Program-made: the position numbers and the translations under genes
Assembly (NCBI GenBank): GCA_934168325.1
Contig: CAKPNG010000001.1
Span: 37,018-101,017 of the forward strand
Length of the DNA: 64,000 nucleotides
Source of the DNA: an uncultured Bacilli bacterium
Lineage (GTDB): Bacteria; Bacillota_I; Bacilli_A; RFN20; CAG-826
Direction: 5' to 3'
The notes under the pieces: model-generated
Database searches by the model: none
What the model saw: only the letters and a program-made list of their open reading frames with translations
What the model was told of the DNA's origin: nothing
Shown: piece after piece, positions 8,600 through 63,951 of the stretch
How positions within the stretch are numbered: the first letter of the stretch is position 1
How the letters are laid out: each line of letters starts with the position of its first letter

Positions 8600-8638
8600 A
8601 AAATTATAAAAGAATAAAGAATAAAGGAGTTTAAATAA

Positions 8639-9022
8639 ATGAAAATTAATGATTTGCTACAATTAAGTGCGGTTTATCAAAGAATTGACGCAGGAACGAC
8701 TGAAATTCCTTTTAAAACAGCTTATAAATTTGTTCAATTAAAAGAAGCTATTGAAAAGCCTTTAACATTTTACCAAGAACAAATGAATAAACTGATAGAG
8801 GAATATGCACAAAAAGATGAAAATGGTCATTACAAAATGACAGAAGATAGACGAGATGTTTTAATAGTTGAAGGAAAAGAGCAAGAATGCCATGAAAAAG
8901 TTATGGAGCTTGAGGCTTGTGATTTTACAATTCCTGATATTACTTTTTCGCTTGATGAACTTGCTACCCTTTCTGTAAGTCTTAGCGAAATGACTGCCTT
9001 AATGCCATTTATTCAAAAATAA
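8639..9022 (+). CDS. Hypothetical protein (127 aa), no TAG
   Basis: Intact ORF with RBS aaggag, lying between a promoter upstream and a terminator downstream. Confidence 0.6.
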   Translation: MKINDLLQLSAVYQRIDAGTTEIPFKTAYKFVQLKEAIEKPLTFYQEQMNKLIEEYAQKDENGHYKMTEDRRDVLIVEGKEQECHEKVMELEACDFTIPDITFSLDELATLSVSLSEMTALMPFIQK

Positions 9023-9048
9023 ATTTATATAAAAATGATAAAAATTTA

Positions 9049-9090
9049 GGACTAGGGATTTTTAAAATAATCCTTAGTCCTTATTTTTTT
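9049..9090 (+). terminator. Rho-independent terminator
   Basis: Stem GGACTAGGGATT/AATCCTTAGTCC followed by a T run. Confidence 0.7.
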
Positions 9091-9140
9091 ACTTAATTAT
9101 GAGAAGGGAAAAAGAAAAAAAGTTCTTTTGAGGTGATTTT

Positions 9141-9473
9141 ATGACAAATATTCCATATAATTCAATGCCATCTTTTTAGGCATAGCAATATTTCCCCACG
9201 CCATAGGGCAACGTTTATTTTATTAATAATTCATTAGAAATGGCAAATGTTCCTATGGGAAATAACTTATCTTTAGCAATTTGTATGAGTGAAGGAGTAT
9301 TTTATATTAAAACATTACAAAATGGGACTCCAACTTTAATGGCATATTAGTTTAGTGCTTATGAACCAAAAAATGCAGTTCCGCAATCAACTACAAATTT
9401 TGAAGAACGACTTAAAAAAATTGAAGAAGCAGTTTTTCCTAAAAAACAAACATTAGGAGGTAAGTTAGAATGA
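9141..9473 (+). CDS. Small protein (110 codons) with 4 in-frame TAG
   Basis: RBS tgaggtga then ATG. Reads MTNIPYNSMPSF*A*QYF... ending ...EERLKKIEEAVFPKK... Ends at TGA, which overlaps the next ATG. Confidence 0.4.
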
Positions 9474-9717: not shown

Positions 9718-10401
9718 ATGGGTGATTTATCTGTTGCTGATGCAATGGCATTAAGCAGAAGAGATGACGACTATGGTGGAGGTTGGTTTAATAATCCATT
9801 TATTTACCTCGTATGGATGTGGGTTATGCGTGCTTTTAATGGCGAGAATGGCGGAAATGCTTTAACTCAGGCGGAATTATTTGATGGTCTTGGCCGTCAA
9901 GACATTTTAGGCAATCAAAGAGAAATACAGCAGGCTTTATGTGGCCTTGGCAAAGAAGTTGCAACTGGCTTTGGCAATACGAGATATGATAATTTAAATA
10001 ATACTTTTTCTTTGCAGTCCGACATTAATGCGGGCTTCGCTGGTGTAGAAAGAGGCCTGTGCGATAACCGTTTCGCTCAGCAAGAATGTTGCTGTGCTAC
10101 ACAACGAGCGATTGATGGCGTTCGTTCTGAAGCTTATAAAAATACTTGTGATATTACTACTGCAATTCATGCTGAAGGTGAAGCTACTCGTGCTTTAATT
10201 ACCGAAAAAACGATGCAGGAACTCCGTGATAAATTGGCTGATCGTGATCGGGATTTACTTTATGCAAATTTCCAAAATTCCCAAAATATGCAAAATTCTT
10301 ATTTAGTGGAAACATTACGTCCAATAGCTAAACCTGCGTATATTACTTGCAGCCCCTATCAGGCTTCGACTCCTACTTGTGCCGGCTGTCAAACCTACTG
10401 A
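9718..10401 (+). CDS. Hypothetical Cys-containing protein (227 aa); GC-richer and TAG-free, possibly an abundant virion protein
   Basis: Intact ORF with RBS aaaaggaga. Local GC about 40% against about 33% background. Confidence 0.6.
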   Translation: MGDLSVADAMALSRRDDDYGGGWFNNPFIYLVWMWVMRAFNGENGGNALTQAELFDGLGRQDILGNQREIQQALCGLGKEVATGFGNTRYDNLNNTFSLQSDINAGFAGVERGLCDNRFAQQECCCATQRAIDGVRSEAYKNTCDITTAIHAEGEATRALITEKTMQELRDKLADRDRDLLYANFQNSQNMQNSYLVETLRPIAKPAYITCSPYQASTPTCAGCQTY

Positions 10402-41821: not shown

Positions 41822-43066
41822 ATGCCTGAAAAAATCTTAAAAGCTCGCATTTTGTTAAGAAATGACGAAACTGCTAATTGGCTGAAAAATTAGAATACAG
41901 TTCTTGAAAAAGGTGAAGCTGGTGTTGAATTTTTAGCTGATGGTAAAACTAAAATTAAAATTGGTGACGGCGTAAAGAAATGGTCCGAACTTCCTTATAT
42001 TGGTGGCGAAGACATAGCTCAAACTCAAGTATTTCAAGTTGAAGCTCAAGCCGAACAAGAAGACCTCACTGTAATTGCTACTGCTGTTGGCGATGCTGTA
42101 TTACAGAGTGGAGACGTTGCAATTGTAAAAAGAGCAATTGCAGGTGAAAAATATGAATATACTGCTTATGTTTATAATGGCACTGCTTGGTGTGCTATGG
42201 ATGGCAACTACAATGCAGAAAATGTTTATTTTAGCAAGGACTTAATTACGACTTCTGCTGTTGGCAACATTACTCTTACTAATGGCCAAGCGACTATCGC
42301 GGCCACGGGTAAAAACTTAAAGCAAGTATTTGATACTATTTTTGTTAAGGAAAAGAATCCAACAATCACACAGCCTTCTGTTGGAGTAACTCTTGGAAAC
42401 TCGGGTGCTAAAGAAGTTGGAACAAAAGTAGTGCCTTCTTATTCTACTACATTCAATAGCGGAAAATATGAATTTGGCCCTGCAACAGGATGTAATCCTA
42501 CTTCTTGGTCGGTGACTGATAGTAATGGCTCTACCCCTCTTACCACTGCAACTGGTAAATTTGCAGAAATTACTGTTGCAGATGATACTAATTATAAAGT
42601 AAATGCTACTGTAAATTATAGTGAAGGTGCTATTCCTAAAACTAATATTGGTAATGATTATCCTGCTGGAAAAATTGTTGCGGGCAATAAATCTGCTGAT
42701 TCTTATACCATTACTGGTTACAGAAATTCTTTCTATGGCACACTTACTGAAAAGGGCGAAATTACAAGTGATATTATTCGTGCTTTAATTGGAAAATCTA
42801 ATAAAGCTTTTGGCAATGGAGCTGATTTTACAATTATACTTCCTGCTGGAGCAATGAGAGTTATATTTGCCTACCCTGCAACCTTAAGAGATGTTACTAG
42901 TGTTAAAGATGTTAATGGTCTTAATGCCGAAATTAAGAGTTCTTTTACTAAATCTACTCTATCTGTTGAAGGTGACAATGGTTTTGCTGGTATTGATTAT
43001 AAAGTTTATACAGCCGATTTTGCAGCTCCAATAGAGAAAACAAATTCTTATGCAGTTAAAATATAA
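41822..43066 (+). CDS. Tail fibre/receptor-binding protein paralog 1; 1 in-frame TAG (41891-41893)
   Basis: N-terminus ARILLRNDETANW...GDGVKKWSELPYIGG is shared with the 44708 and 46289 genes. Joins listed ORF 42197-43066. Confidence 0.7.
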
Positions 43067-43086
43067 TTTTAGGAGGGAAATAAATA

Positions 43087-44661
43087 ATGGCTATGGATTT
43101 TGGAAAACTTGATTTCGCAGTATCGTTTAACCGATTAACTGCCTTCCCTCTTGATGCAAAGAGCTATTTTGAGAGTTTAGAGAGTGCTCAAGCTGCGGCT
43201 GCAACTGCCGAGGGTGCAGGTAGCTCGAATACTACTTATTATTTTGGTCAGCAAATTGCTGTTGTTGAGGGTGGAGTTGCTACTCTTTATGTAATTCAGC
43301 CAGATAAGACTCTTAAAGAAGTCGGCGGAAAAATTGCAATTAACGGAAATGTTTTTGTTAAAGATGCGGAAGGTAAGCTTGATTTACTTGGATTTGTCGA
43401 TGCTACTGCTGGTGCTCAGCTTGTTAAATCTGCTGATGGCAAACTTTCTTGGGTAAAGCCCGACACTACTACTGTTGAAGGACTTTCTACTGCCGTAGAA
43501 GGTTTAAAAGCTGATGTTGCTAGTTTAAGAACTGATGTTGGTAAAGCTGCACAGGGCGAAACCGCCGCGACTGGCTTATTTAAAGAAGTTTCGGATATTA
43601 AAGGTTCTCTTGCTCAGCAAGCAACCAATATTAGCGGTAAAGCAGATAAGGCAACTACACTTGCTGGTTATGGCATCACTGATGTTTTTACAAAAACTGA
43701 GACAAATTCGGCAATTGCTAAAGCTATTTCTGAAAGTGGCCATGCTCAATTTGTAAAAGTTGATGCTGTTCCTTTTGCGGAAGAAGCCGAGGCAAATAAA
43801 CTTTATTTAGTTTATAATGAAACAACTCAGCATTATGACATTTATGCAAAGGTTGATGACGCAGTTGAATTACTTGATGATACTACTGTTGATTTAACTA
43901 ACTATTATAAGAAAGACGAAGTTAATACAGAACTTGCTAAAAAAGTTGATAAAGTTGATGGTAAAGGGCTTTCTACTGAAGACTTTTCTACTGAACTTAA
44001 GAATAAGTTAGTTGGAATTGCTGAAGGCGCCGAAGTCAATGTAGTTAAAAGTGTTAAGGATACTGATTTTGTTGTTAGTGCAGAAGGTCAGCTTCAATTA
44101 AAAGACACTATTTCTACTGCGGTCAATGCTGTCGCAAATAAAGTCGATAAAGAAGAAGGCAAGAGCCTTGTAAGTGATACTGAAATTACTAAACTTACAA
44201 CTGTCCAAGAAAATGCTGAACCCAACTATATTAAGAATGTTGATGCACAGTTCGAAGTAAGTGCTGAAGGTCAGTTATCTCTTAAAGAGCTTGCTCAAGA
44301 TAAAATCACTGGGCTTCCTGCGGCACTTGAGGGAAAAGTTGATAAAGTCGAAGGTAAAGGTTTATCTAAAAACGACTTTACTGATGAATTTGTTACAAAA
44401 CTCAATGCAATAAATCTTGAGAATATTCAAGCTAATGTGATTGAAAAAATCACTCTTAACGGCGTAGAAACCCAAATAGTTGAAAAAACTGTCGATATTC
44501 CACTTGCGACTACTGCTCAATTTGGTCTTGTTAAAGGCTCTGACGCTGAAAATGAGGTCGCAATTAAAGCCGATGGTGTTATGAGTGTTAATACTCTTAA
44601 TATACAAAAGCTTTCTCAAACTGAGGGCGAAACCTTAGTTCTTGATTGCGGGAAAGCTTAA
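43087..44661 (+). CDS. Tail fibre protein with three KVDKVDGKGLS..DF..L repeats
   Basis: Internal repeats and Ala-rich coiled segments. TAG-free. Confidence 0.65.
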   Translation: MAMDFGKLDFAVSFNRLTAFPLDAKSYFESLESAQAAAATAEGAGSSNTTYYFGQQIAVVEGGVATLYVIQPDKTLKEVGGKIAINGNVFVKDAEGKLDLLGFVDATAGAQLVKSADGKLSWVKPDTTTVEGLSTAVEGLKADVASLRTDVGKAAQGETAATGLFKEVSDIKGSLAQQATNISGKADKATTLAGYGITDVFTKTETNSAIAKAISESGHAQFVKVDAVPFAEEAEANKLYLVYNETTQHYDIYAKVDDAVELLDDTTVDLTNYYKKDEVNTELAKKVDKVDGKGLSTEDFSTELKNKLVGIAEGAEVNVVKSVKDTDFVVSAEGQLQLKDTISTAVNAVANKVDKEEGKSLVSDTEITKLTTVQENAEPNYIKNVDAQFEVSAEGQLSLKELAQDKITGLPAALEGKVDKVEGKGLSKNDFTDEFVTKLNAINLENIQANVIEKITLNGVETQIVEKTVDIPLATTAQFGLVKGSDAENEVAIKADGVMSVNTLNIQKLSQTEGETLVLDCGKA

Positions 44662-44707
44662 TTAAATCTTTTCCATAAAAATATTTTATTTTAAGAGGTA
44701 AGTATTA

Positions 44708-46222
44708 ATGGCGCAAGATAAAATTTTACAAACTCGTATTTCGTTAAAATACGATACCTATGCAAATTGGCATAGTAAAAATCCGCAACTCCTCGAAGGT
44801 GAGGTTGCGGTCGTTGTGATTCCTGGTAGCGATCCAGTTGGAACCATTAGTAATGTTCCTACTGTGTTATTTAAGGTTGGTGACGGCACTAAGAAATTTG
44901 ATGATCTTCCTTGGGTATCTGGTCCCGCAGGCGATGTTTATGCTTGGGCAAAAGAGGCTAATAAACCTTCTTATTCTGCAACTGAAATTACTGGTTTAGA
45001 CACCTATATTTCTGGTCAAATTCAAGACACCGATACTCAATATAAAATTGCAATTAGTGGCAGAACTGTTCAGTTATTTAAGAAAGATAAGGGTGGTGCA
45101 TTTGGCACTACACCTGATTCTACTTTTAATCTTCCCGATGAAACTGTTCATACTTTAGTTGAAGGCACCACAAACGGCACTGTTAAATATGATGGCACTG
45201 ACGTAAAAGTTCATGGACTTGGCTCTGCGGCCTATGAAGATAAGACTTTCCTTGATACAAAAATTGCCGAAGCTAAGAAAGCCGGCACGGATGCCCAGAC
45301 TGCTGTCGATACTTTATCTGGCAAAGTCGGCACTGTCCCTGAAAATAAAACTGTCATTGGCTTAATTGCCGAAGCAAAGAAAGCTGGCACTGATGCTCAG
45401 GCTTCTGTTGGTGCTCTTGATACAAGAGTAGGTGTAATTCCTGATGGGGCTGCGGCTACTACTGTTGTAGGATATGTTGATGAAAAAATTGGAGCAATTC
45501 CTACTCAAACAGATTATTCTGTAAGTGTTTCCAATCCTACTTCTACTACTTATGCTCAAGTTTATGAATTTAAACAGCTCGGCAAGACAATTGGCACTAT
45601 CAATATTCCTAAAGATATGGTAGTGCAGAGTGGTAGTGTTGAGACTAAAGCAACCGCTGGTGCTTGGGGCGAAGCTGGCACATATCTTCATTTAGTGCTT
45701 GCAAATGCTGACAACAGCTCCATTTATATTAATGTTGGCGACCTCATTGAATATGTTTCTGCTGGTTCTGGAGAAGACGATGCCATTCAAATCGATATTA
45801 GTGCTGACCACAAGGTAAGTGCTTCTGTTAAGAATGGTTCCATTACTCTTGCTATGCTGGATGCCGCTGTTCAGACTGACATTGGTAAAGCGCATACTCA
45901 TACCAATAAAACTGTTCTTGATGGTATTTCCGCTGAAAAAGTTTCTGCTTGGGATTCGGCTGAACAAAATGCAAAAACTTATTCTGATGGACAATTGGCT
46001 GGCACTATTACTGGTTTAGCCAGTCAAGCTGTTGTTTCTTCTGATGAAGCGGATGGTAGCTTCTATGCTTTATCCAATATTACTCAAGCTTCTGGTAAGA
46101 TTAAAAAAGAAAACGAAGTTAAATTTGCAAAAATTGCAAAAACTGCTAATGTAGCTGATTTAGTGCAAACAGAAGGCAACTATGTAGTATTTAATTGCGG
46201 TTCCGCAACCACAAACATTTAA
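44708..46222 (+). CDS. Tail fibre/receptor-binding protein paralog 2
   Basis: Shared N-terminal domain. TAG-free. Confidence 0.65.
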   Translation: MAQDKILQTRISLKYDTYANWHSKNPQLLEGEVAVVVIPGSDPVGTISNVPTVLFKVGDGTKKFDDLPWVSGPAGDVYAWAKEANKPSYSATEITGLDTYISGQIQDTDTQYKIAISGRTVQLFKKDKGGAFGTTPDSTFNLPDETVHTLVEGTTNGTVKYDGTDVKVHGLGSAAYEDKTFLDTKIAEAKKAGTDAQTAVDTLSGKVGTVPENKTVIGLIAEAKKAGTDAQASVGALDTRVGVIPDGAAATTVVGYVDEKIGAIPTQTDYSVSVSNPTSTTYAQVYEFKQLGKTIGTINIPKDMVVQSGSVETKATAGAWGEAGTYLHLVLANADNSSIYINVGDLIEYVSAGSGEDDAIQIDISADHKVSASVKNGSITLAMLDAAVQTDIGKAHTHTNKTVLDGISAEKVSAWDSAEQNAKTYSDGQLAGTITGLASQAVVSSDEADGSFYALSNITQASGKIKKENEVKFAKIAKTANVADLVQTEGNYVVFNCGSATTNI

Positions 46223-46288
46223 TTTTAATTATAAAGAGGTGGGTCGTCTTAGGGCGGCCCACTTCATATGAAGAAAGGAGGCTTCTTA

Positions 46289-47293
46289 ATGGCTAATACT
46301 GAATTTAATGTAAGAATTTAGTTAAAGCGTGATACTGATGCAAATTGGCGAGCAAAAGATCCTCAATTATTAGCAGGCGAAGTTGTTTTTGTTGATACGA
46401 ATGCGGGCGAAGTAAGAACTAAAGTTGGCGATGGAACTAAAAAATATAGTGCATTACCTTTTATGGATGAGGTATTAAGAAACCTCATTTCAAATACAGA
46501 ACATTTATTTAAAGTAAGGGCTGTTTGCGACTTAGCTGGTGATACAACTACGCCAACAACAATTTTAGAACATGAAGATATTGGTGAGATTCTTTCTGCT
46601 GCAATAGATACTACTCGGCCAGTGGTAGCAGAAATTCAGTCATAGGACAATGAATACGATAAATTATGGCTACCATTAGTTTATTTTAATCCTGATAAAG
46701 AAGAAGCTAGTTTTATAGGGCCTCTTAGTGCAAGCGCTTGGTTTACATTAGAGTTTACAAATGGAGCTTGGTTTTTTGGACGAATAGACTTAGCAAAATT
46801 AACTGATATTCCAACAAAACTTTCTCAGCTTGAAAATGACACTAATTACCTTAATTCTGATACAAACTTTGTTCATAAAACAGGTGATGAAGAAATTAAG
46901 GGAATAAAAACTTTTGAAAGTTCTATCGTTTGCTCTATGACACCAGGCAATGAAAATCATTTAGTTAATAAAAAATATGTTGATAATAAAGTCGGCACTT
47001 ATTTACCTCTTGCGGGCGGTAAAATGACTGGTAATATCCAAATGAATAATAAGGAAATTACACAAGCCGCGAAAATAGGGTTTTTAAGGGGAGCGTATTT
47101 TGAAAGTTCAAATATATAGCAACAAAATGTAATTTCTGCTTTTACTTCTGGTGGTAGTACTCTTGCTTATCTTAATGCTTATGCTCAAACTCCAAAAGCA
47201 ACTGATAACGTGATGGTTCTCGCAAATAAAGAATATGTCGATAAAAAAACAACAGTCCTGTTAAAAACTTGGACTTCTGCCGATATTAGTTAA
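46289..47293 (+). CDS. Tail fibre paralog 3 with collar-like motif; 3 in-frame TAG
   Basis: MANTEFNVRI*LKRDTDANW... joins ORFs 46463.. and 46937... Contains LPLAGGKMTGNIQMNNKEIT. Ends in TAA. Confidence 0.65.
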
Positions 47294-47296
47294 ATT

Positions 47297-47324
47297 TGAC
47301 TTTTAACTAAAATTATGTTATAAT
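47297..47324 (+). promoter_or_regulatory. sigma70-like promoter
   Basis: TTGACT-N16-TATAAT. Confidence 0.5.
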
Positions 47325-47349
47325 AAATTTAACTAAAAGGAGAGATAAA

Positions 47350-48171
47350 ATGGCAACTGAACAAACTTTAACTACTTTAATTATAAATGAAGTAGATAGT
47401 AAAGAAACATTTAATAAAATGAAAGCATAGGGTTTGATTAATGAAAAGGAACTCTATTTAACACCAGAAGAGGCTGCAGAACATCAAATTAAAGTTCAAA
47501 ATGATGAACCTACTAATGCTGTAGCTAATGATTTATGGCTTGATTTAGATGAAGATGCTCCAGCTTCTTTACCAGTTAGTGGCGGTACTTTAACTGGTCC
47601 ACTAGCTATGAGCAACAATAAAATTACAGGAGTAGGAGATCCTACTTCTGCTCAAGATGTCGCAACAAAAAATTACATTGACATTTCCTTTTTAGCTTTA
47701 AGCGGTGGCACAATTAATGGTGATTTAGTACTTGGCCCTACGAGTTCTTTAAAATTTTAGATTGGAAACTCAGCTTTTACAATAAAAGCAGGTGGTCAAG
47801 GCTTATTGGTTCCTGCTCCAATTTTTATGACCGCTCAGGGCAATCCTTCAACATAGACTGCCTTAGTAACTATGGGACAATGTACCGAGGCATTTGCGCC
47901 AAAAATAGCTAGTGTTAGTGCAAGTGGAGCAATTAATCAAACTTTAGTAAAAAATAGAGATTATACCTTTACTTCTGTTTCTTCTTTAAATTTAACAGCA
48001 GGAACTGGCTCCTGTCATGGATTCATAACTTTTGGTAGTTCTACACCTACTGTTTCGCTTTCAGGTTTTACAAAAGTAGATGGTGATATAGCTAATGCTG
48101 CGGCTTCAACGGTTTGGGAATTTTCTTGTTATAATAAATATGCTGTGTTTAAGAACTGGAGTGAGGTGTAA
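47350..48171 (+). CDS. Tail fibre-like protein; 3 in-frame TAG
   Basis: SGGTLTGPLAMSNNKITGVGDPTSAQDVATKNYID. N- and C-terminal regions are paralogous to the 52434 gene. Confidence 0.65.
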
Positions 48172-48176
48172 GCTTT

Positions 48177-48602
48177 ATGGATTTATTTGAAAGAAGAAGA
48201 AATCTATTGGGCGGTAAGAAGAAATTATACCTTTATTAGGCTGGATGGACTAATGTCCAAAATAGTGCTATTAAGGGGTGGGCTTATGCTTTTCAATCTA
48301 ACTATCTTTTAATTGATCCGAGTTTAGATTCTTCATACGCTTTTGCTCGTATTACAATTAATAATATTACTGATTTATCTTTATATAAAAAATTATATAT
48401 TCGTTATTATTGTAATGTTAGTAATGGAGATATTCATGTAGGTAAAGTAATGCATTCTAATATTAATGGGGCTATTATTGCAAATACTATAACTACTTTA
48501 AGTTTTGATATTAATAATGATTGGAACTATTTATAGATTGGTGGTTCTAATGCTGCATTTTCAACACTGTTTAGAATTTATGAAATTTGGCTTGAAAAAT
48601 AA
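48177..48602 (+). CDS. Hypothetical protein; 2 in-frame TAG
   Basis: ATG 48177. Ends in TAA. Confidence 0.45.
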
Positions 48603-48616
48603 AAGGAGGAATAAAA

Positions 48617-48997
48617 ATGCCTGTCTTAAAAGTTAAAACACCTAATAATGGCTGGGTTGCCGTTGGAGGCGGGGCTACTGGCAGCTCAGGTTCTGGAACT
48701 GGTGGTAGTTCTTATACTCTACCGATTGCTAATGCAACAATTTTGGGTGGAGTAAAACCTGTATCCAAAACCTCCGAAATGACTCAAGCTGTTGGTGTAG
48801 ATAATGATGGCCGTTTATATACAAAACCTGGAACTGGTGGATCTGGTTCTGGTGGCGGAGGATTATCTTCGGCTTATTCTGTTGGAGCAACTGCTCCTTC
48901 TGACACTGGAATTTTATGGATTGATAGTGGAAATTCCAATACATTAAAATTTTATAACGGTTCAAGCTGGGTTGCAGTTGGAGCTGTTTGGGGATAA
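48617..48997 (+). CDS. Gly-rich fibre-like protein
   Basis: RBS aaggagga. GSGSGGGG tracts. Confidence 0.55.
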   Translation: MPVLKVKTPNNGWVAVGGGATGSSGSGTGGSSYTLPIANATILGGVKPVSKTSEMTQAVGVDNDGRLYTKPGTGGSGSGGGGLSSAYSVGATAPSDTGILWIDSGNSNTLKFYNGSSWVAVGAVWG

Positions 48998-49010: not shown

Positions 49011-49307
49011 ATGGAGAGAAAAGAATTAACAGTTCAAGTTAGCTCCGATGTTTGTGAGTTAATTGAAGCTTTACAATATGAGGTTGAAAGTCGTAAAGAA
49101 ATTATTTCCTTCATGTTAAGTTCAGGTATGGATATTCATAGTGATAGCTTTAAAGAATATGAAAAGCAATATATTGATTTCTTTATTCAATATAATGAAG
49201 CAAAGAATCGTCTTGAAGCTGATTTTGTGCGACCACTTACAAGTGAATTTGAGACATGGAATCTTGATTTTACAACTCATATTATTACAATTAAATTAAA
49301 AAAATAA
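49011..49307 (+). CDS. Hypothetical small protein upstream of the Cys-repeat gene
   Basis: RBS aaaggag. 98 aa. Confidence 0.5.
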   Translation: MERKELTVQVSSDVCELIEALQYEVESRKEIISFMLSSGMDIHSDSFKEYEKQYIDFFIQYNEAKNRLEADFVRPLTSEFETWNLDFTTHIITIKLKK

Positions 49308-49327
49308 AATAATTTGGAGGAATTAAC

Positions 49328-50305
49328 TTGATTACTTCCGAAGAAATTAAAAACATAAAACAAAAATTAGGTAATGAAATGGCACGGCGTCGTTGGTATG
49401 GCAATTTAAATGTTAGCCCTTATAATGCGACTATAATGAGTAATGCTACACAAATTACCAAAGGGTCAAAAATGTTAGCATCTTAGGGTAATGAAATTTT
49501 AACCCCTTTAAACAAAATAGCAACAGACAGTAATTTACCAATTGCCACGGCTAATAGCCCAATTCCCAATACATTTAATTATAATGCTTTAAATGAGAAA
49601 ATAACAGCATGGTCCGCAGAAGATATTGCAGGAAGCGTTACTTCTTGCGGAGCGGTCTGTACTGGTTTATGCACAACCACTTGTGCTAGTGGATGCGGCG
49701 GCGGTTGCGATTCTTCTTGTGGTAAGAATTGCGGTTCTGGATGCTCTAATGAGTGCAAAGGTGGCTGTTCAGGTAATTGTGCGGCCGGTTGCGGTGGTAG
49801 TTGTGGTTCGAGCTGTTCTAATGCTTGTTCAGGAAGCTGTGGTGGAAACTGTGGTTCAAATTGTAGTGGTTGTGGTGGAAAATGCTCAGCAGCCTGCACT
49901 TCGAGCTGTAGTTCGGGGTGCGTAGGAGATTGTAAATATACTTGCACAGGTAGTAGTGCTAGTGGTGCTAGTTGCAGTAGTAGCTGTACTGCTACTTGTC
50001 ATCATGTATGTAAGAATGGTTGTTCATCTTCTTGCTCCTCAACTTGTGGAAAAACTTGCAGAGTCGATTGCAATTCAAGTTGTTCTGATGGTTGTGATAG
50101 AGGCTGTTCTGGCAGTTGCGGTTCTGGTTGTTCTGGAACTTGCTCAGGTGGCTGTGATGGCTCATGTGGGAGTGGTTGTTCCAGTCAATGCTATGGTGGT
50201 TGTTCCGCTCAATGTGTAATGGCTTGCACTGGCGGTTGTGGTAGTGGTTGCACTCATTCTTGTGCAACAAGTTGTTCAACCTTATGTGTTAATGCCGCGT
50301 CATAA
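49328..50305 (+). CDS. Cys-repeat protein: about 100-aa N-domain plus about 53 Cys in CxxxC periodicity; 1 in-frame TAG (49484-49486)
   Basis: RBS ggagg then TTG. ...SCGAVCTGLCTTTCASGCGGGCDSSCGKNCGSGCSNEC... Ends at TAA 50303-50305. Listed ORFs 49579-49947(-), 49626-49925(+), 49956-50219(+) and 49992-50279(-) are off-frame shadows. Confidence 0.75.
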
Positions 50306-50326
50306 ATTAAAAGGAGATTTTTAGGA

Positions 50327-51664
50327 ATGAATTTTGAAGATTTTCAATTATTAGAAGATAGACACCATGAAGAATATAGTAGTGAAATGATGAGAATTTT
50401 TAGGTTAAAACATATTCCTAAAACTATTACTTTTCAAGTTACAGAGGACTGTTGTCTATCCTGTATTTATTGCTATCAACACGCTAAAAAAAAGACGCAC
50501 ATGACTCCAGAAATAGGTCACGCTGCGATTGATTGGTTATTAGCTTCTACACCAGAAAATAATCCATATATAAATCCTGAAAATTCTCCTGCAATAATAA
50601 TTGACTTTATTGGCGGAGAGCCTTTAATGGAAATTGATTTAATTGAAGATTTAATTTGCTATTTTAAAAGACGCACAATTGAATTAAACCATCCATGGGC
50701 TTTCCGCCACAGATTTTCAATTTGTTCTAATGGAGTTCTTTATTTTGATCCACGCGTACAATCTTTACTTCAAAAATATGGAAATGAAATTAGCTTTTCG
50801 ATTTCAATTGATGGTACAAAAGAATTGCATGATGCTTGTAGAGTTTTCCCCGATGGACGCGGTAGCTATGATATTGCAGTTAAAGGAGCATTACATTATC
50901 AAAAGCATTATGGACATGGAGCTATTGGTAGTAAGATGACATTGGCTCCAGAAAATATTAAATTTACTTGTTCCGCAGTAGAAAATTTATTAAAGCTAAA
51001 CTATAAGTCAATTAACTTAAATTGTGTTTTTGAGGAAGGTTGGACTAGTAAAGATGCATTAATTCTTTACCAGCAACTCAAAAAAATTGCAGATTTTATG
51101 ATAGAGAAAAAACTTTATAAAGATACAACAATTTCAATGTTTTCTTTGCGGTGCGGGCATCCTTTAGATAAAAAAGACAATGAAAATTATTGCGGAGGAG
51201 CGGGTCAAGGTGGAATGATGGCAATTAACTATTTAGGTAATATTTATCCTTGCCTCCGTTATATGGAAAGTTCAGTAGGAGATAACCAACCGCCGATGAT
51301 AATTGGCAATATTTTTGAAGGAATTGGCACACATTTAGAAGAACAAAAAAGATTAAAACTTTTGAATGCAGTGACGCGACGCTCGCAATCTACTGATAAA
51401 TGTTGGACTTGTCCAATTGCGAGCAATTGCGGTAATTGTTCAGCATATTCTTATGAAAAATTTGGAACACCTGATCATAGGGCAACTTTTATCTGTCCTA
51501 TGCACATTGCAAGGGTATTAGCTAATGTGTATTATTGGAATAAAGTGTTTCAACAAGAGAATATAGAAAAAAGATTTTGGAATTTTGTGCCTAAAGAATG
51601 GGCACTTGATATTATAGATGAAAATGAATTTGATTTATTAAATAAATTAAGTGGGGTGTTTTAA
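50327..51664 (+). CDS. Radical SAM/SPASM-domain peptide-modifying enzyme (anSME-like)
   Basis: CLSCIYC (CxxxCxxC), GGEPL and a C-terminal SPASM cysteine cluster CWTCPIASNCGNC...FICP. Confidence 0.85.
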   Translation: MNFEDFQLLEDRHHEEYSSEMMRIFRLKHIPKTITFQVTEDCCLSCIYCYQHAKKKTHMTPEIGHAAIDWLLASTPENNPYINPENSPAIIIDFIGGEPLMEIDLIEDLICYFKRRTIELNHPWAFRHRFSICSNGVLYFDPRVQSLLQKYGNEISFSISIDGTKELHDACRVFPDGRGSYDIAVKGALHYQKHYGHGAIGSKMTLAPENIKFTCSAVENLLKLNYKSINLNCVFEEGWTSKDALILYQQLKKIADFMIEKKLYKDTTISMFSLRCGHPLDKKDNENYCGGAGQGGMMAINYLGNIYPCLRYMESSVGDNQPPMIIGNIFEGIGTHLEEQKRLKLLNAVTRRSQSTDKCWTCPIASNCGNCSAYSYEKFGTPDHRATFICPMHIARVLANVYYWNKVFQQENIEKRFWNFVPKEWALDIIDENEFDLLNKLSGVF

Positions 51665-52047
51665 TGGCACTTTATTTTGGAAATTAGTTAGTTAGTTTAA
51701 CATCGGTTAATAGTGGTGGAGAAGCGAATATACAAACAGCGACTCTTTCTTTGACAGGAAATGCTTTAGGTCAAGGCATTACAGTATTGTATATAAATGA
51801 TAATGGAGAGCTACAAACCGACGACTATAATCAAGAAGCTACAATCACAGTATAGAAGTCTACCATAGTATTTTTTATATTTTCGAGCAATTTGTAGATT
51901 CTAACAGTTGTGGATGGAGTTCCAGAAAATTATCTTCGTGAGTAGGCGGGTGGAAATTATGATTCATTTATTTTAGCGCCTTCTGTATCCTGTTCCTCTA
52001 TTATGGTTGAAGGAGATTCGACGGTTAATGTGGCAATAAACGTTTAA
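51664..52047 (+). CDS. Hypothetical beta-rich protein; 5 in-frame TAG; start overlaps the radical SAM gene stop
   Basis: TAATG overlap. Ends at TAA 52045-52047. Confidence 0.45.
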
Positions 52048-52134: not shown

Positions 52135-52163
52135 TTGACTTTCTCCTAAACTTATGTTATAAT
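52135..52163 (+). promoter_or_regulatory. sigma70-like promoter with extended -10
   Basis: TTGACT-N17-TGtTATAAT. Confidence 0.5.
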
Positions 52164-52186
52164 AAAAGAAAAAGGAGAAAATAAAA

Positions 52187-52363
52187 ATGCAACATATAAA
52201 ATATATTGGTCATGATTTTGATGAAAATGGTTTTTTGGTTGAAATTTTTGAATATAGAGGCCGTCAATATTCTTGGATTCACAATGGAAAATATACAGGA
52301 AGTTCTGAAGGCTTCCATCAGAGAGAAACACAAAAAATTGATTCTCTTAAATTAACATAGTGA
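52187..52363 (+). CDS. Small hypothetical protein (57 aa)
   Basis: RBS aaaaggag then ATG. Confidence 0.35.
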
Positions 52364-52433
52364 AAATAATGTATTTTTTTAAATATACTCTTACTTAATT
52401 GTAGGAGTATATTTTTTTTGGAGGAATTTTAAA

Positions 52434-53081
52434 ATGGCACAAATTAAGCTTAAAACAGGTGATAATAAATATGAATATATAGAAGACAGACGCCTCCATA
52501 TTGGTAATTCACAACCTACCAATTCAGAAACTAATGATTTATGGTTAGATACTGATGAAGAGGGCGTAGCACTTCAACCAGAATTACCAAAATTCTCAGG
52601 ACTTGTTAAACAAACTTTAGACAATAATGGAGTGGCAACTTTTTCCGCGGCGGTTAAAAATGAAGATTTTCAGTCACCTTTAAATTAGGTTAATGGAATT
52701 TTAAAAAGTAATAATGACCGGCAAATTTCACAAGCAGAAGCCAATGTAGATTATATGGAACCACCTGCATTTGTAAGTCAAAATGGTGCAAGCCTATCCA
52801 TCATATTATCACATAATAAATTTTATAATTTAATTATATCTGCAAATGGACTTTTAACTTTAAATAGTGGATTAGGTGGAGCTGGTGAAACCACTGATGT
52901 TTCAATTTCTCATGGCTTTATTTAGTTTGAAGGTCCAGCAACCGTTAATTTTGGAGCTTTTCTTTCAATAAAAGGTAGCGACGATATATCAGGGACGACT
53001 GCTACAATTACAAAGGCAACACTATGGGAGTTTTCATCTCTTAATGGTTATTTAATAATAAAAGATTGGAGTGAAGATTAA
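52434..53081 (+). CDS. Tail fibre-like protein paralog of the 47350 gene; 2 in-frame TAG
   Basis: NDLWLDTDEEG and C-terminal TLWEF...DWSED parallel NDLWLDLDED and TVWEF...NWSEV. Confidence 0.6.
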
Positions 53082-53473: not shown

Positions 53474-54589
53474 TTATTTAAGTTGATCCCAATCACATTC
53501 TTGCCACTGTTTATCTTCTCTAAATCCAATCATTTTAGCGTGACGGAGACCGCCCGCGTCAGTATCAAATCTTTCCATTGAAGTAATTTCAATTACTTTA
53601 CCTTTATAGTCTTTATAGTTGGCTTTAATTTCTTCAGTCAATCCACTCAACCAACCAATTGGAGTAATTTTTCCATCTTTAATTACTCCTATTTCCAAGC
53701 TCCCCGCCCAACCATAATAATAGCTTTTTGTAATAGGCATAAGTGAAGTCATACCTTCATCATATTTTCTCCAAAGTCGTTCATTAAATTTTTCACCAGT
53801 GCGAGCGTCTTCCCAATATTTCCATTCTTCAATTTGTTTACCTGTGTAAGCTTTAGTAGGTGCTGCGGCACGACCTGTAAAGAAACAATCAATTGTATTA
53901 GAAAGTTCTTTTTTAATTTTTATTGTCATGCGGGCTGGCGTTCTTTTTTCATAAATTGGACAATCTTTTCGAGTTATTACAACACCTTCGAGATCTTTTG
54001 CTAAATATTCACTAATTTTATCCCAGAGTTCAGCTCCTTCATAATAAGTAGCAAAATCGACATAAGGATAATTTCCATAAATTGAATTATTTATTTTATT
54101 AAGAACTCTTATGCGGTCTTCAATCGGTTTAGACATATAGTTTTCGCCTTTCCAAGCACAAACATCAAAAACATAAAAGTGAAGGAATTTATTTTGTTCT
54201 TGCTGGCGAGCAATACATTTTTCTTTAAGACAGCCCAAAAGCGAAGTGATTTTTCTGCTTCCTTCATCATTTGGCAAATAAATTTCTCCAATGAGGCAAG
54301 TCCCATTGGGAAGAGATTCGAACCAGTTTCTCAATTGCGGAACCCATTCGTGTTTATCTACTGGTTCTCCTTTAACATTTTTATCGCGGGCGACCATAAA
54401 GATATTGCCGTCATCATCCTTAATAACACGCTGATAATATCCATCTCTTTTCAAGGCTCCAACATAACGTCCGCTAAAAATTAAATCATAAGTTTCTTGC
54501 TTTTTATCTTTTTTGTAGTTAAGAGGGAATTGCCAGTAACGCATTGCCTCCATATCTACAAAATTTTTATTGCCAATATAACCTTCCAT
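53474..54589 (-). CDS. ATP-dependent DNA/RNA ligase (nucleotidyltransferase superfamily)
   Basis: KRDG (motif I-like) and EGVVITRKD...K.K (motifs IV/V). Confidence 0.6.
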   Translation of the reverse strand: MEGYIGNKNFVDMEAMRYWQFPLNYKKDKKQETYDLIFSGRYVGALKRDGYYQRVIKDDDGNIFMVARDKNVKGEPVDKHEWVPQLRNWFESLPNGTCLIGEIYLPNDEGSRKITSLLGCLKEKCIARQQEQNKFLHFYVFDVCAWKGENYMSKPIEDRIRVLNKINNSIYGNYPYVDFATYYEGAELWDKISEYLAKDLEGVVITRKDCPIYEKRTPARMTIKIKKELSNTIDCFFTGRAAAPTKAYTGKQIEEWKYWEDARTGEKFNERLWRKYDEGMTSLMPITKSYYYGWAGSLEIGVIKDGKITPIGWLSGLTEEIKANYKDYKGKVIEITSMERFDTDAGGLRHAKMIGFREDKQWQECDWDQLK

Positions 54590-58675: not shown

Positions 58676-58688
58676 GGTGATTAACTTT

Positions 58689-59927
58689 ATGAAAGAAATT
58701 AACTGCCCCGCTAGTGCCCAACTTATGATGATGCCAATGATGAGTGGCACTATCGCGGCGGGCTTTAAGAATAAAAAATATTAGGAAGCTTATAAATTTC
58801 CTCACTATGGCGTTGATTTTGATAGTCGATATGGTGAAGATTTTAAAGTGGTGGCTTCTGGTAACGGAACAGTAATTGGGGTTGAGAAAAACTTAAACAA
58901 TTCTTTAGGTTGTATTTGTGTTATATAGTATGATAATGTTTATAACCCGACCACTAAAAAAATTGAAAGTTATGTGTTCCGCTATTATCATATGGCTTAG
59001 CTTTATGTTAAGAAAGGCGATAAGGTAAAAGCTTATGACCAATTAGGACAAGTAATTAATCATAAGTGGTGGAATCATGTCCATGTAGAAATTGATTCCG
59101 ATATTAAATATCCTTTCTATACCCCGCAGGTTGCAGAAAAATCTTCAGCATTGTTAATTAGAAAAGGTGCGACTGATTCCTCTTTATTAAACCCTATGAC
59201 GGTGTTAGTTGTTGGAAGGCAGCAATCTATGATGGTTCATAATTTGGCTATTTATGCGGACCATACATCTGATGCTCCTCGATTTGTGGAAGGGTTGCCC
59301 GCGCCAACAATTCCAACTGAACCTAAACCGCAACCTAAACCTCAAGTTCAAGTTCAAGACAAAACCTTACCTATTCTTCCAATTAATGACGCAAAGCTGA
59401 CTTGTGGCTATAAAAATCCACTTTACTATCAGCAATATGGAATTAGACATTATGGTTGCGATTTAGTTTCTGTCTCGAACAAACGAGAAATTTATGCGTC
59501 AGCGGATGGTAAAGTAATCGCTGCGGGCTGGGATGGGACTAATACTCCAGCCTATCCAAACGGTAATAACTCAGGTTGTGGTTATGTTCTTATAATTGTT
59601 TATCCAAACATTAAAATCAAAGGGACGCAAAAAACTGGAGCCACTTTCACTTATCTTCACTTAAAAGAGCAACCAGTTGTAAAAGTTGGCAGCCAAGTTA
59701 AACAAGGACAATTATTAGGCTATTATGGAGATACTGGTTCAATGGTATTTGGTGCTCATTTGCACTTACAAATAGATACGGATACAAAATATCCTCAATA
59801 TTGTATGGGAATGGGTAGCGGGCATCGTATTTTAAAGCATGGCACAGTAGATAGCACAGTTAATCCTATGGATATTCTTTATTTAGGAAAAAATCAATCT
59901 ATCATTGGCGGGCGCTATCCCGCGTAG
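58689..59927 (+). CDS. Peptidase M23 (LytM) with two M23-like domains; 3 in-frame TAG
   Basis: C-terminal domain ..GDTGSMVFGAHLHLQID; N-terminal domain ..WWNHVHVEID. Joins listed ORF 59151-59927. Confidence 0.7.
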
Positions 59928-60078
59928 TATGACAGAAATGACCTGCAAAAACTTGAAAAAATTTAAAAATTGTTATATAATAATTATAGAAAAGTTGAGA
60001 GAGCAATAAACTTTTTTGTGTTAGTTTTAACGAGTGCGCTGGCGGGCCGCGTAGTAGTCCGCTAAAGTTATCTCTCAG

Positions 60079-61625: not shown

Positions 61626-61702
61626 GAGGCGGTAGTCCAACGGCAGCAGACAATGGACTTAAAATCCATCAAGTGAGGGTTCGAATCCCTCTCGCCTTAC
61701 CA
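61626..61702 (+). tRNA. tRNA with anticodon UAA (Leu-like) and a short variable arm
   Basis: Acceptor GAGGCGG/TCGCCTT with A73 and CCA. T arm GAGGG-TTCGAAT-CCCTC. Anticodon stem ATGGA/TCCAT with loop CTTAAAA. Confidence 0.55.
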
Positions 61703-61985
61703 TTAGGTTTTTCAACCTACCCTTAAAATTGAGATTAGAATAAAACACAAAGATGATGCTTTGAAGTATAAAAGCGGTCCGCACTTTTAGTAAGATTTTT
61801 TAATTATATAAATCCTATTTTATCCCATTATTTCTTGGAAAGGAGCAGAAAAATGGATAAGCGTATATTTAAGAAAACTGGTGAAGAACTTCAACAGTAT
61901 CTAGCATTTAAGCGAAAACATTTTTTTGTTCCCGCCAAGAAAGGAAAAGGTTCTTTTAAAAGGCAAGAAAAACATTCAAAAAATT

Positions 61986-62059
61986 TCGAGAACGTAGTGT
62001 AATGGTAGCACCTTTCATTTGGGATGAAAGAGAGTGGTTCGAGTCCAACGTTTTCGACC
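61986..62059 (+). tRNA. tRNA-Pro(UGG)-like with irregular T-stem
   Basis: Acceptor CGAGAAC/GTTTTCG with A and CCA. D-arm TAGTGTAATGGTAGCAC. Anticodon stem TTTCA/TGAAA with loop TTTGGGA. GGTTCGAGTCC T-loop. Confidence 0.45.
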
Positions 62060-62205
62060 ATCAGTTCTTTTAGAAAAGGAGTGAAGCCTATGATTGTATT
62101 TGAAAGAATAAAGGAAAAGGACAGTCCGCCTAAAAGATGAGACTTGTTGAGAGTCGGTAAACTATCAACTCAGTTTTGTAGTTCTGAATAAAAACTACAA
62201 AGTAT

Positions 62206-62282
62206 GGCAATATAGCTCAGTTGGTGGTAGCATTTGACTGTTAATCAAAGGGTCAAGAGTTCAAGTCTCTTTATTGCCTCCA
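62206..62282 (+). tRNA. tRNA-Asn(GUU)
   Basis: Acceptor GGCAATA/TATTGCC with T and CCA. Anticodon stem TTTGA/TCAAA with loop CTGTTAA. T arm AAGAG-TTCAAGT-CTCTT. Confidence 0.7.
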
Positions 62283-62357
62283 TGGGGTGGCTTCGCCCTG
62301 ACTATATAAAAATGAAGCTTGTGGGCATATTTTCTATTCAAAAAGTGCCCATTTTAT

Positions 62358-62429
62358 CGGATAATAGTTCAACGGGAGAACAAAGAGGTCGCGCCTTTTA
62401 TGGTAGTTCAATTCTACCTTATCCGACCA
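62358..62429 (+). tRNA. tRNA, anticodon read as CGC (Ala?), compressed variable region
   Basis: Acceptor CGGATAA/TTATCCG with A and CCA. D GTTC-AACGGGA-GAAC. T GGTAG-TTCAATT-CTACC. Anticodon loop GTCGCGC. Confidence 0.45.
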
Positions 62430-62534
62430 TTTTCATTATCGTGTATTGATGATGGAAACTCCTATATTCGGTGTTATTTCCGAATTTAACTGGTCTTTGG
62501 GTATTTCCCAGTCCAAGAAATAACCATTCGCTGT

Positions 62535-62608
62535 GGTTTAGTAGTTTAATGGTAGGATAAAGCTCTTGTAAAGCTTAGGCAACAGTCCGATTTTGTTCTA
62601 AACCTCCA
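62535..62608 (+). tRNA. tRNA-Thr(UGU)
   Basis: Acceptor GGTTTAG/CTAAACC with T and CCA. Anticodon stem AAGCT/AGCTT with loop CTTGTAA. Confidence 0.6.
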
Positions 62609-62740
62609 TCAGTGAAGTCTCGATTACCGATTGCCGGAACTCCACCACAAACAGTTAAATGTCAAATAGTGAATCGAGAGCTATTTGCGATGTAGTTTTC
62701 TGGTAGGTTTTCTACGTAAAAAAGCCTCCTATTTGCTGGT

Positions 62741-62812
62741 GGTCCGGTAGTTTAATGGTAAAACGCTCTCAGGCACGAGAGAAATAGGATGTTCGAATCC
62801 CTAAAGACCTCA
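62741..62812 (+). pseudogene. Degenerate tRNA-like element
   Basis: Good D-arm (GTTT-AATGGTA-AAAC) and GTTCGAATCC T-loop, but the acceptor and T stems do not close and the anticodon loop is 6 or 8 nt. Confidence 0.3.
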
Positions 62813-63587
62813 TAAGTGAAGCGATTTGTAGGTGTTAAATTTCCTGCTCCTTGAGTGGAAACCTTCGGCGTTGTGATTAGTCGCCTTATCTATCCAAGAT
62901 ATTTCCCATATTCACTTGTAAAAGAATATGGGAACGCGTTAAGCCTAAAGTTATAATCATAACGTATCTTAGTGAAGAACGAATACCATCGTGCTAAGAA
63001 ATAACCCCGTCCGCGATAGGGACGCAATACATAAGTCGATTTGAGGGATACTTCAATTAGACTAAGGTTAAACGGCGTGAGCTGTCCGACTAGACCAAGG
63101 CTGAACTGAGGTCCGTGCAGGGTTATTGTGCTAATCTAATCGCTCTTAAAAGCATTGTCTCATCGCTCTCACAATAGAAGCTTTAGTGAATAGCTGAAGC
63201 TGAACCCAAGAAGACGGTCGAGTGGCATCGCCCGCAATCGTTGGGAAAGCCAATAAGAGAGTTTGTCGTGAAGTTGAAGAAATTCAATGTATAAGATGAG
63301 GTCAAAGTACGAGTAGTCCAAGACAAAGACTTCCCGAATTTTAATGGGGGACTATTTAATAGGTAAATAAATTGCTTTACTTTTCTGAATGGTGGATGAA
63401 AGTTTGTCGTAATCAATCGACGAAAGGTTTGTTGTTGCTAGTGCAACATAGGGCAAGAACTTTTGTCAAGACGTTGGCAAGGGTCAGACTTGTCTTCCTT
63501 TTGGCTGAATATAAGAGAAGATTATGTGAGGTAAGGCGAAGGCCTACGATTGTGGTTATAATTTTAGGTTTAACCTAAAAACTTAAA
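62813..63587 (+). other. About 0.8 kb noncoding, hairpin-rich region inside the tRNA cluster (unclassified ncRNA or intron-like)
   Basis: No ORF over 60 codons. Perfect 9-bp hairpin CCCATATTC..GAATATGGG at about 62905-62935. GACTA/TAGTCC elements. Ends at the intrinsic terminator. Confidence 0.3.
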
Positions 63588-63626
63588 CCGCTCTTTGGGT
63601 TATCAGAGCGGGCATCTTTTTCTTTA
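63588..63626 (+). terminator. Intrinsic terminator
   Basis: CCGCTCT-TTGGGTTATC-AGAGCGG then GCATCTTTTTCTTT. Confidence 0.7.
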
Positions 63627-63672
63627 TTGGGATTTTTTTTGCTCTTTTTAGAAAAATAAAGAGCCGGAATAT

Positions 63673-63746
63673 TGGAGGTTCGTTCAATAGTAGGACTCAT
63701 CTCTCTAAAAGATGGAATCGCGGTGCAAATCCACGGCCTCTAGCCA
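63673..63746 (+). tRNA. Amber suppressor tRNA, anticodon CUA, Gln-like identity
   Basis: Acceptor TGGAGGT/GCCTCTA (U1-A72) with G73 and CCA. D GTTC-AATAGTA-GGAC (G10). Anticodon stem CATCT/AGATG with loop CTCTAAA (CTA at 63705-63707). T CGCGG-TGCAAAT-CCACG. Confidence 0.65.
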
Positions 63747-63876
63747 TGACAGCTTTGAAAGTTCCCCTGTCAAAAATAACAAGAACTTTCAGAAATCGCG
63801 GAGATGGAGAAAAAGAGTCTCGCAAGGGTCATTACCTTGAAATCAGTTATGGCAGTAATAACCTCCGCACCCATAC

Positions 63877-63951
63877 GGTCCCATCATCTAATGGCAAGGA
63901 TATAACCTTTTCACGGTTAAAATATGAGTTCAATTCTCATTGGGACTCCCA
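63877..63951 (+). tRNA. tRNA-Glu(UUC)
   Basis: Acceptor GGTCCCA/TGGGACT with C and CCA. Anticodon stem TAACC/GGTTA with loop TTTTCAC. T ATGAG-TTCAATT-CTCAT. Confidence 0.65.

Follow-up and report, generated by a model that had tools for sequence, protein, structure and literature searches.

The 64,000-nucleotide stretch of contig CAKPNG010000001.1 analysed here (hereafter the window, taken at its full length) carries three consecutive genes that code for a small helper protein, a protein with Cys at every fourth position (the target) and a radical S-adenosylmethionine (radical-SAM) enzyme with a SPASM domain. We read this cassette as a phage-type copy of the CXXX-repeat modification system, lying in the tail-fibre module of a TAG-recoded phage and acting on a target that is probably cross-linked and tail- or fibre-associated, and we give this reading as a whole a probability of roughly 0.6. 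That the enzyme is a member of family TIGR04115, and forms a true enzyme-target pair with the CXXX-repeat protein, we hold with high confidence.

Enzyme, target and helper

The cassette has the following parts:

49011–49307, + strand: small accessory (helper) protein, TIGR04116-like, 98 amino acids, no TAG
49328–50305, + strand: CXXX-repeat target protein, 325 codons, TTG start, one in-frame TAG
49328–49645, + strand: conserved non-repeat domain of the target, about 105 amino acids, with profile matches in 58 sources
49484–49486, + strand: in-frame TAG at target codon 53, most likely read as Gln (homologue alignment and suppressor tRNA)
49646–50287, + strand: Cys-every-fourth repeat region of the target, C107 to C320 (Cys count and spacing)
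50327–51664, + strand: radical-SAM/SPASM enzyme, very probably a TIGR04115 member, 445 amino acids, no TAG
50450–50473, + strand: CxxxCxxC radical-SAM cluster codons (C42, C46, C49), read from the sequence
51191–51496, + strand: SPASM region with seven invariant Cys (sequence and alignment of 23 homologues)

The enzyme scored 418.2 bits against the NCBIfam model TIGR04115 (cut-off 350, E = 3.6e-125), covering profile positions 2–359 of 359. This model is titled "radical SAM peptide maturase, CXXX-repeat target family", so the pairing that had been noticed from the letters alone is that of a curated, named family. The CxxxCxxC motif (C42/C46/C49), FIGGEPL at residues 94–100 and the SPASM pattern C289...G304-x4-C309, C359-x2-C362-x5-C368-x2-C371, C390 were all located, and the radical-SAM Cys and the seven SPASM Cys are invariant in 23 homologues, which bears out the architecture (CxxxCxxC, GGEPL and a C-terminal Cys cluster) proposed by an earlier, sequence-only reading of this DNA. 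Pfam matches to Radical_SAM, Fer4_12 and SPASM are all weak, only Fer4_12 reaching its cut-off, and the SPASM match spans residues 296–363. The enzyme also matches phrog_1802 (201 bits).

All other maturase models scored far below their cut-offs: PapB (NF047865; 171.6 bits, cut-off 340), SCIFF maturase (TIGR03974; 119.3 bits, cut-off 425), CcpM (104.3 bits, cut-off 500), QhpD-type (103.6 bits, cut-off 453), CefB (64.4 bits, cut-off 600), TIGR04463 (59 bits, cut-off 525) and anSME (TIGR03942; 51.5 bits, cut-off 349). Identity with anSME or another housekeeping radical-SAM enzyme was accordingly rejected, as was membership of the PapB or SCIFF maturases, to which the enzyme is related only. The HMM searches that the sequence-only reading had proposed thus matched a peptide-maturase family, though not the anSME or ranthipeptide types that it had named. 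Among solved structures, CteB is nearest in sequence (5wgg, E = 9.5e-36). This alignment opens at CteB residue 83 against profile position 16, past the N-terminal recognition element for ribosomally synthesised and post-translationally modified peptides (RiPP recognition element, RRE), which leaves the window enzyme without an RRE domain. Neither an N-terminal RRE (PqqD-like) domain nor a separate leader-binding RRE protein, as looked for in ranthipeptide and sactipeptide maturases, was found. One 777-residue homologue, P0095, carries the intein and homing-endonuclease domains PF05203, PF14528 and PF14890 and is an intein-interrupted maturase.

The target opens with about 105 residues outside the repeat; its 53 Cys then run from C107 to C320. 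Fifty of the 52 spacings equal 4, one is 3 and one is 10, a periodicity that is not attainable by chance and that agrees with the N-domain of about 100 residues and the roughly 53 Cys in CxxxC register described before. The repeat is composed mainly of Cys (53), Ser (48), Gly (46), Thr (16) and Ala (13), and the residues between the Cys are nearly all Ser, Gly, Thr, Ala or Asn. Repeat-composition analysis found no conserved residue at any of the three inter-Cys positions, and family-wide Gly makes up 17–39% of each of them. Tandem Repeats Finder returned two trivial 2-copy arrays and no DNA tandem repeat matching the Cys period, so this period is kept by the protein and did not arise from slippage.

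The non-repeat domain (consensus ..LKAxVKAEMxRR..GSL..Y.G..YDF...P..G..I..EH..K...PL..) was found in 58 sources (57 loci and the window), always joined to a Cys repeat, and lies C-terminal to it in L043, L049 and L052. The junction ahead of the first Cys is conserved (E.M.G..SS-C), and the first repeats, C..(A/V)C(T/S)G(L/I)C...C, are kept across the four close homologues that reach into the repeat. Across the domain-carrying sources, the number of Cys per target ranges from 11 to 145, the longest being a 669-residue protein with 145 Cys (L044, 5120–7126) from a metagenome-assembled genome labelled Tenericutes.

The target weakly matches phrog_6085, and its scores against TIGR04114 (13.4 bits, cut-off 20) and TIGR04117 (19 bits, cut-off 50) are both sub-threshold; phage-type targets scanned directly against NCBIfam matched no family. 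An 87%-identical homologue, P0123, has a precomputed Pfam match to PF27846 (tSAM_targ_Cxxx_rpt), and our own Pfam scan of the target and P0123 gave no match, the Pfam copy scanned being apparently one without PF27846. Pfam and PHROG scans and a profile search of the PDB gave no structural-family match for the target, and the AlphaFold2 model of the homologue P0129 is unusable (predicted local distance difference test, pLDDT, 36).

The one in-frame TAG of the target has to be seen against the coding of the window as a whole. When TAG is taken as sense, total open reading frame (ORF) length rises sharply and ORFs reach 1676 amino acids (14 TAG) and 815 amino acids (21 TAG). Read-through is expected because a tRNA with a CUA anticodon is encoded in a seven-gene array at 61626–63951 (Leu-UAA, Pro-UGG, Asn-GUU, Ala-CGC, Thr-UGU, the CUA suppressor and Glu-UUC):

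63673–63746, + strand: tRNA with anticodon CUA (TAG suppressor), found by ARAGORN and labelled Pyl by its anticodon

In an alignment with four close homologues (P0123, P0127, P0128 and P0129), each of them has Gln in the column of the target's TAG. The long TAG-bearing ORFs, the CUA tRNA and the Gln column together indicate that TAG is sense-read in the window phage, most likely as Gln, as the recoding claim of the sequence-only reading held. Its further suggestion that TAG marks late expression is weak for the cassette: the target has one TAG, the enzyme and helper none, and two adjacent fibre genes of about 500 codons are also TAG-free, and we draw no conclusion on timing.

The 98-residue helper had no match to TIGR04116 ("CXXX repeat peptide modification system protein") in a direct NCBIfam scan and was linked to TIGR04116 proteins by iterative hidden Markov models (HMMs). 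Aligned by hhalign with the Bacteroidales proteins, it gave a probability of 91.8% (E = 7e-7, 83 columns), and both share the motif W.(L/I)DF.T; the linked Bacteroidales protein of locus L078 scores 88.7 bits on TIGR04116. As judged from these profile links, the window protein is probably a divergent TIGR04116 homologue. With a homologue in 78 of 86 sources, it belongs to the set, in which the sequence-only reading had placed it as a preceding 98-residue ORF.

The ORFs of that reading (the 98-residue ORF, the Cys-repeat and radical-SAM genes and a small TAG-rich ORF) were recovered with the boundaries given there; the spacer between the target and radical-SAM genes, given there as 22 nucleotides, measures 21. 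The TTG start of the target sits 7 nucleotides past a GGAGG.

A conserved unit in two architectures

Database searches returned 3508 homologues of the enzyme at E ≤ 1e-20, and a scan with one genome per species yielded at least 559 loci, mainly in Clostridia (Oscillospiraceae, Lachnospiraceae), together with a distant group of about 40% identity in Bacteroidales, Spirochaetes and others. The family name is already attached automatically to prophage copies at NCBI (P0027). Homologues of the target domain and the helper were gathered by iterative HMMs on fetched loci; word-indexed searches had given two matches for the helper and one for the target domain, and an exhaustive single-sequence search seven. 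A same-strand Cys-periodic ORF is present in 73 of the 85 fetched loci, within about 2 kb of the radical-SAM gene in nearly all of them and at most 3.7 kb away. The substrate-maturase pair proposed from the window alone is therefore a recurrent one, and the enzyme is not an unrelated housekeeping protein.

These loci fall into two types. In the Bacteroidaceae locus L078 the target starts with a twin-arginine (Tat) lipoprotein signal (SRREFFKK...FFTSC), continues with a middle domain and ends with a C-terminal CXXX repeat; 3' of it lie genes for TIGR04115 (638 bits), TIGR04119 (a SPASM-only protein, 245 bits; "CXXX repeat peptide maturase"), TIGR04116, TatA and TatC. This region (L078, 6932–11390) and the similar L064–L085 represent a bacterial-type system. 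A TIGR04119 profile built from L078 matched 18 bacterial-type loci of the distant group, and TatC was matched in seven downstream ORFs of the sample. A target that is a Tat lipoprotein with its own TatA and TatC fits a substrate that is folded or cross-linked ahead of export. In contrast to this bacterial type, with its Tat-exported lipoprotein target, TIGR04119 and TatA/TatC, the phage type has neither TIGR04119 nor TatA/TatC: no TIGR04119 was found in the window or in the phage-type loci, where its profile matched only the SPASM domain of the enzyme itself. Phage-type targets instead share the conserved domain of about 105 residues, and most of their loci have a fibre-like gene next to the cassette. 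With no second maturase and no Tat genes, the window cassette is a reduced, phage-type variant.

The immediate neighbours of the cassette are:

48617–48997, + strand: fibre-like gene directly 5' of the cassette, 126 amino acids, with the C-terminal motif ILWIDSGNSNTLKFYNGSSWVAVGAVWG
51664–52047, + strand: ORF 3' of the radical-SAM gene, 127 codons, four TAG

The flanks at 41822–48997 have tail-fibre and tail-assembly PHROG matches, which upholds the placement among tail-fibre genes first made from the sequence. The protein of 48617–48997, which has no PHROG or NCBIfam match of its own, is the window copy of a fibre-like family with the ending ..LWIDT.NG..KYYNG..W..V..VWG. Genes of this family (proteins of 56–974 amino acids) lie beside the cassette in 41 sources and in 36 of the 53 non-redundant phage-type loci. 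A comparable setting is found outside the window: in prophages of Clostridia the cassette is placed between baseplate or tail-fibre genes and genes for lysis. A Caproicibacterium genome (GCA_029211325.2, loci L004 and L005) contains two different prophages with identical cassette copies between Baseplate_J/tail-fibre genes and a GH25 lysin, and in L086, whose enzyme is 61% identical, the order is Phage_fiber_rpt, Gly_rich_2, CBM_5_12, target, helper, enzyme, GH25 and Amidase_2. Counted as ORFs, not loci, and from partial flanks, 93 upstream ORFs include 17 with Baseplate_J, and also YQBQ, Mtd_N, Collagen, Peptidase_S74, BppU_N and Phage_tail_fib; 110 downstream ORFs include Amidase_2 (10), Amidase_3 (5), holin (3), GH25 (2) and glucosaminidase (2). 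On the same counts, the 25 flank families seen most often contain neither a protease nor a peptidase-ABC exporter. The best matches in the GenBank phage collection are uncultured faecal contigs at 37–38% identity, and the best of these, MT835573.1, carries all three genes. Radical-SAM/SPASM genes of SPN3US-like and Erwinia jumbo phages are about 25–29% identical to the enzyme (e.g. NC_027402.1, 140165–141334).

The ATG of the ORF at 51664–52047 shares 1 nucleotide with the radical-SAM stop. This ORF has no Pfam, NCBIfam or PHROG family match. Compared with its counterpart in L001, where the radical-SAM enzyme is 98% identical, only the first 20 or so residues (MALYFG.Q.VSLTSVNSGG) are alike; the rest differs and reads as fibre-like. 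A conserved N-terminus with a swapped C-terminus is a modular receptor-binding pattern; going by this comparison, the ORF probably codes for a small protein of the fibre or receptor-binding type, and we do not count it as part of the modification system.

Other features of the window and of related loci were noted along the way. The ORF 52434–53081 has no PHROG match and was called fibre-like from motifs common with 47350–48171; the two appear as fibre-like paralogues around the cassette, with an N-terminal 'NDLWLD.DE' and a C-terminal 'WEFS...(Y)..(F/I)K(N/D)WSE'. Between fibre genes, 52135–52414 looks like a small independently transcribed insert, with a near-consensus promoter-like site, TTGACT-17-TATAAT with TG (52135–52163), a 57-residue ORF (52187–52360) and a terminator-like hairpin with a 14-bp stem (52381–52414). 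At 7703–8569 lies a second protein with the same C-terminal motif as that of 48617–48997 (KKLWIDTVNNVLKYYNPTKKDWVIVPVAYS), followed by a 127-residue helical ORF (8639–9022) that is not a Cys-repeat target. A 227-residue ORF at 9718–10401 has clustered Cys (..QQECCCATQ.., and TCSPYQASTPTCAGCQTY at the C-terminus) and is unrelated to the CXXX repeat. By eye, 53474–54589 (− strand) resembles proteins of the ATP-dependent DNA-ligase type (..GALKRDGYY..), and the 429-residue ORF at 58677–59966 (four TAG) has two LytM/M23-like HxxxD/HxH segments and is a possible lysin. Elsewhere, L002 at 2600–9400 (ENA k141_253600, 167.7 kb, non-standard code) holds three radical-SAM genes, two helper-like ORFs and a short CXXX target, by PhoH, gyrase and RNase H.

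Proposed role of the target and rival explanations

In the mechanism that we propose, the helper would present the non-repeat domain, and perhaps the first repeats (C..AC(T/S)GLC), to the RRE-less enzyme, which would then work along the repeat and convert the Cys thiols to covalent cross-links, most likely thioethers. Thioethers are expected because the nearest characterised relatives, PapB, CteB and QhpD, make them, and by this analogy we consider thioether cross-linking of the repeat about an even bet. Since Gly is frequent at every inter-Cys position, no side-chain carbon is available for modifying each repeat in the same way; more likely the sulfur is bonded to an alpha carbon (sactionine type), or modification is partial. 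The product would be a rod or knot, variable in length, resistant to proteases and insensitive to redox state, that probably stays joined to the non-repeat domain and, in anaerobic hosts, functions in association with the tail or fibre. Such hosts and an oxygen-sensitive enzyme fit thioethers in place of disulfides. That the target acts in place as a cross-linked protein domain is suggested by the variable, protein-sized substrates, the permuted domain order, the lack of protease or exporter among the flanks and the Tat export of the bacterial type.

The steps beyond this are put forward with less assurance. That the target is a component of the virion or tail is a tentative proposal made from gene position, which we would place somewhat short of an even chance. 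The most far-reaching version, in which a radical-SAM enzyme is dedicated to cross-linking a tail or fibre protein of the virus that encodes it, making a thioether ladder of the Cys repeat, would be without precedent, and we regard it as doubtful. In that version, the appendage would owe its length or stiffness to the size of the repeat, from 11 to 145 Cys.

Several observations weigh against the reading as a whole. The non-repeat domain of the target may be disordered when alone and leader-like, as the low-confidence model of its homologue (pLDDT 36) hints. No conserved acceptor residue accompanies the Cys, so PapB and CteB may work by a different chemistry. L002 and L087, both large phage-like contigs, have the cassette beside PhoH, gyrase and other radical-SAM genes and not beside tail genes, and the flank tallies are to be read with the limits given with them. 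In INPHARED, no cultured phage has a close homologue, the best matches (38%) being uncultured faecal contigs, and neither biochemistry nor proteomics on any family member was found in the literature searched.

Some of these same points lend themselves to a different account, in which the target is a very large RiPP precursor: helper and enzyme would recognise its leader of about 105 residues, and the cross-linked Cys repeat, once cleaved from the leader, would leave the cell at lysis as a bacteriocin-like, signalling or host-modifying product and not become part of the virion. The NCBIfam title speaks of a peptide maturase, peptides with leaders are the substrates of related enzymes, the poorly modelled domain is leader-like, the conserved junction E.M.G..SS-C could be a cleavage site, the cassette adjoins lysis genes, and in L002 and L087 it lies outside the tail module. 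However, the frequent flank families include no protease or peptidase-ABC exporter, targets with up to 145 Cys in 669 residues go far past known RiPP cores, and a leader is hard to reconcile with the three loci in which the domain is C-terminal to the repeat. The tight synteny with the fibre-like gene and the bacterial-type target, which is a whole Tat lipoprotein and not a cleaved peptide, also speak against such a precursor, and we judge it unlikely.

The Cys repeat could instead be a scaffold for metal, iron-sulfur clusters or disulfides, with the radical-SAM enzyme performing other chemistry (e.g. Cys oxidation, as by anSME) or modifying a few residues only. Regularly spaced Cys among small residues recall metal-binding Cys-rich proteins in general, the repeat lacks a conserved acceptor, proteins loaded with a cofactor are also typically exported by Tat, as the bacterial-type target is, and there is a distant similarity to anSME. 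Yet the anSME score is far under its cut-off and under the scores of the thioether-forming relatives, the strict co-occurrence of repeat, helper and enzyme points to the repeat as the substrate, and a phage of the anoxic gut would gain little from disulfides; a scaffold of this kind seems quite improbable to us. Virtually no weight is left for a third account, in which the Cys-repeat ORF is an off-frame or low-complexity artefact beside an unrelated housekeeping radical-SAM gene, an objection that the sequence-only reading had itself raised. Shadow ORFs in other frames and the one in-frame TAG under the standard code could be cited for it, but homologues with diverged DNA keep the layout of domain and Cys period in 58 sources, with no DNA tandem repeat, so the ORF is not an off-frame artefact; the Gln column, the suppressor tRNA and the TIGR04115 score refute the remainder.

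If the target is indeed cross-linked and part of the tail, it would represent a new type of virion maturation, a possible source of very stable, genetically encoded cross-linked protein rods and, where the hosts are strict anaerobes, a redox-proof replacement for disulfides. A large share of the family is found in tail modules of phages from gut Clostridia, where the gene set is reduced and the substrates are the size of proteins, and this finding shifts the question away from "which peptide natural product is this?". As an assembly of the cultured genus Caproicibacterium has two cassette prophages, the question is directly testable.

Comparison with known systems

The cassette is closest to the CXXX-repeat system as curated (TIGR04114/04115/04116/04119), with which it shares the enzyme family, a target with Cys at every fourth position and a small helper that is probably homologous. 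It differs in having no TIGR04119, TatA or TatC, in a target with another domain and no Tat or lipoprotein signal, and in a helper too diverged for a direct TIGR04116 match, as well as in its location in a phage tail-fibre module. The enzyme-target family has presumably been in the databases for more than a decade, judging from the TIGRFAMs accession series; to our knowledge it was defined by comparative genomics alone, and we know of no biochemistry on it. The claim that this was not a described phage system has thus to be divided: the family itself is curated (TIGR04114–04116, PF27846), whereas the phage tail-module setting of CXXX-repeat/radical-SAM pairs was not found in the literature searched, where the name TIGR04115 appeared in unrelated contexts only. 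Neither this reduced architecture of the phage type nor its association with a fibre-like gene has, as far as can be told, been described.

Among characterised systems, PapB/PapA (freyrasin, a ranthipeptide), whose model ranks second for the window enzyme, offers a short radical-SAM/SPASM enzyme, position 4 of its 330-position model aligning with residue 33 of the window enzyme. The latter, however, stays below the PapB cut-off of 340, and its target has 53 Cys in 325 amino acids and is not a short peptide. PapA reportedly has six Cys-x3-Asp motifs that receive Cys-to-Asp beta-carbon thioethers, repeated Cys motifs being cross-linked one after another. Its acceptor is thus Asp, whereas in the window repeat position i+4 is the next Cys and no Asp or Glu acceptor is conserved. 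CteB/CteA (5wgg/5why) provides the closest solved structure, that of a thioether-forming radical-SAM/SPASM enzyme with two auxiliary clusters; unlike the window enzyme, CteB has an N-terminal RRE domain, and its SCIFF substrate is a peptide of 45 residues. Regularly spaced Cys beside a radical-SAM/SPASM maturase are also a feature of CefB ('Cys-every-fifth'), CcpM and TIGR04463, but with other spacings and other targets.

For a cross-linked protein, not a peptide, the best precedent is QhpD/QhpC, from the maturation of the gamma subunit of quinohemoprotein amine dehydrogenase. QhpD introduces several Cys thioether cross-links into a protein that is exported once cross-linked and stays on as a structural component of a larger assembly; QhpC, however, is linked at three Cys-to-Asp/Glu pairs, contains no repeat and is not found in a phage setting. 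Covalently cross-linked virion proteins are known from the HK97 capsid, whose isopeptide 'chainmail' forms autocatalytically. Both HK97 and the proposed virion role of the target involve post-translational covalent stabilisation, but the window phage would use for it a dedicated, oxygen-sensitive radical enzyme, and would apply it to a protein of the tail module.

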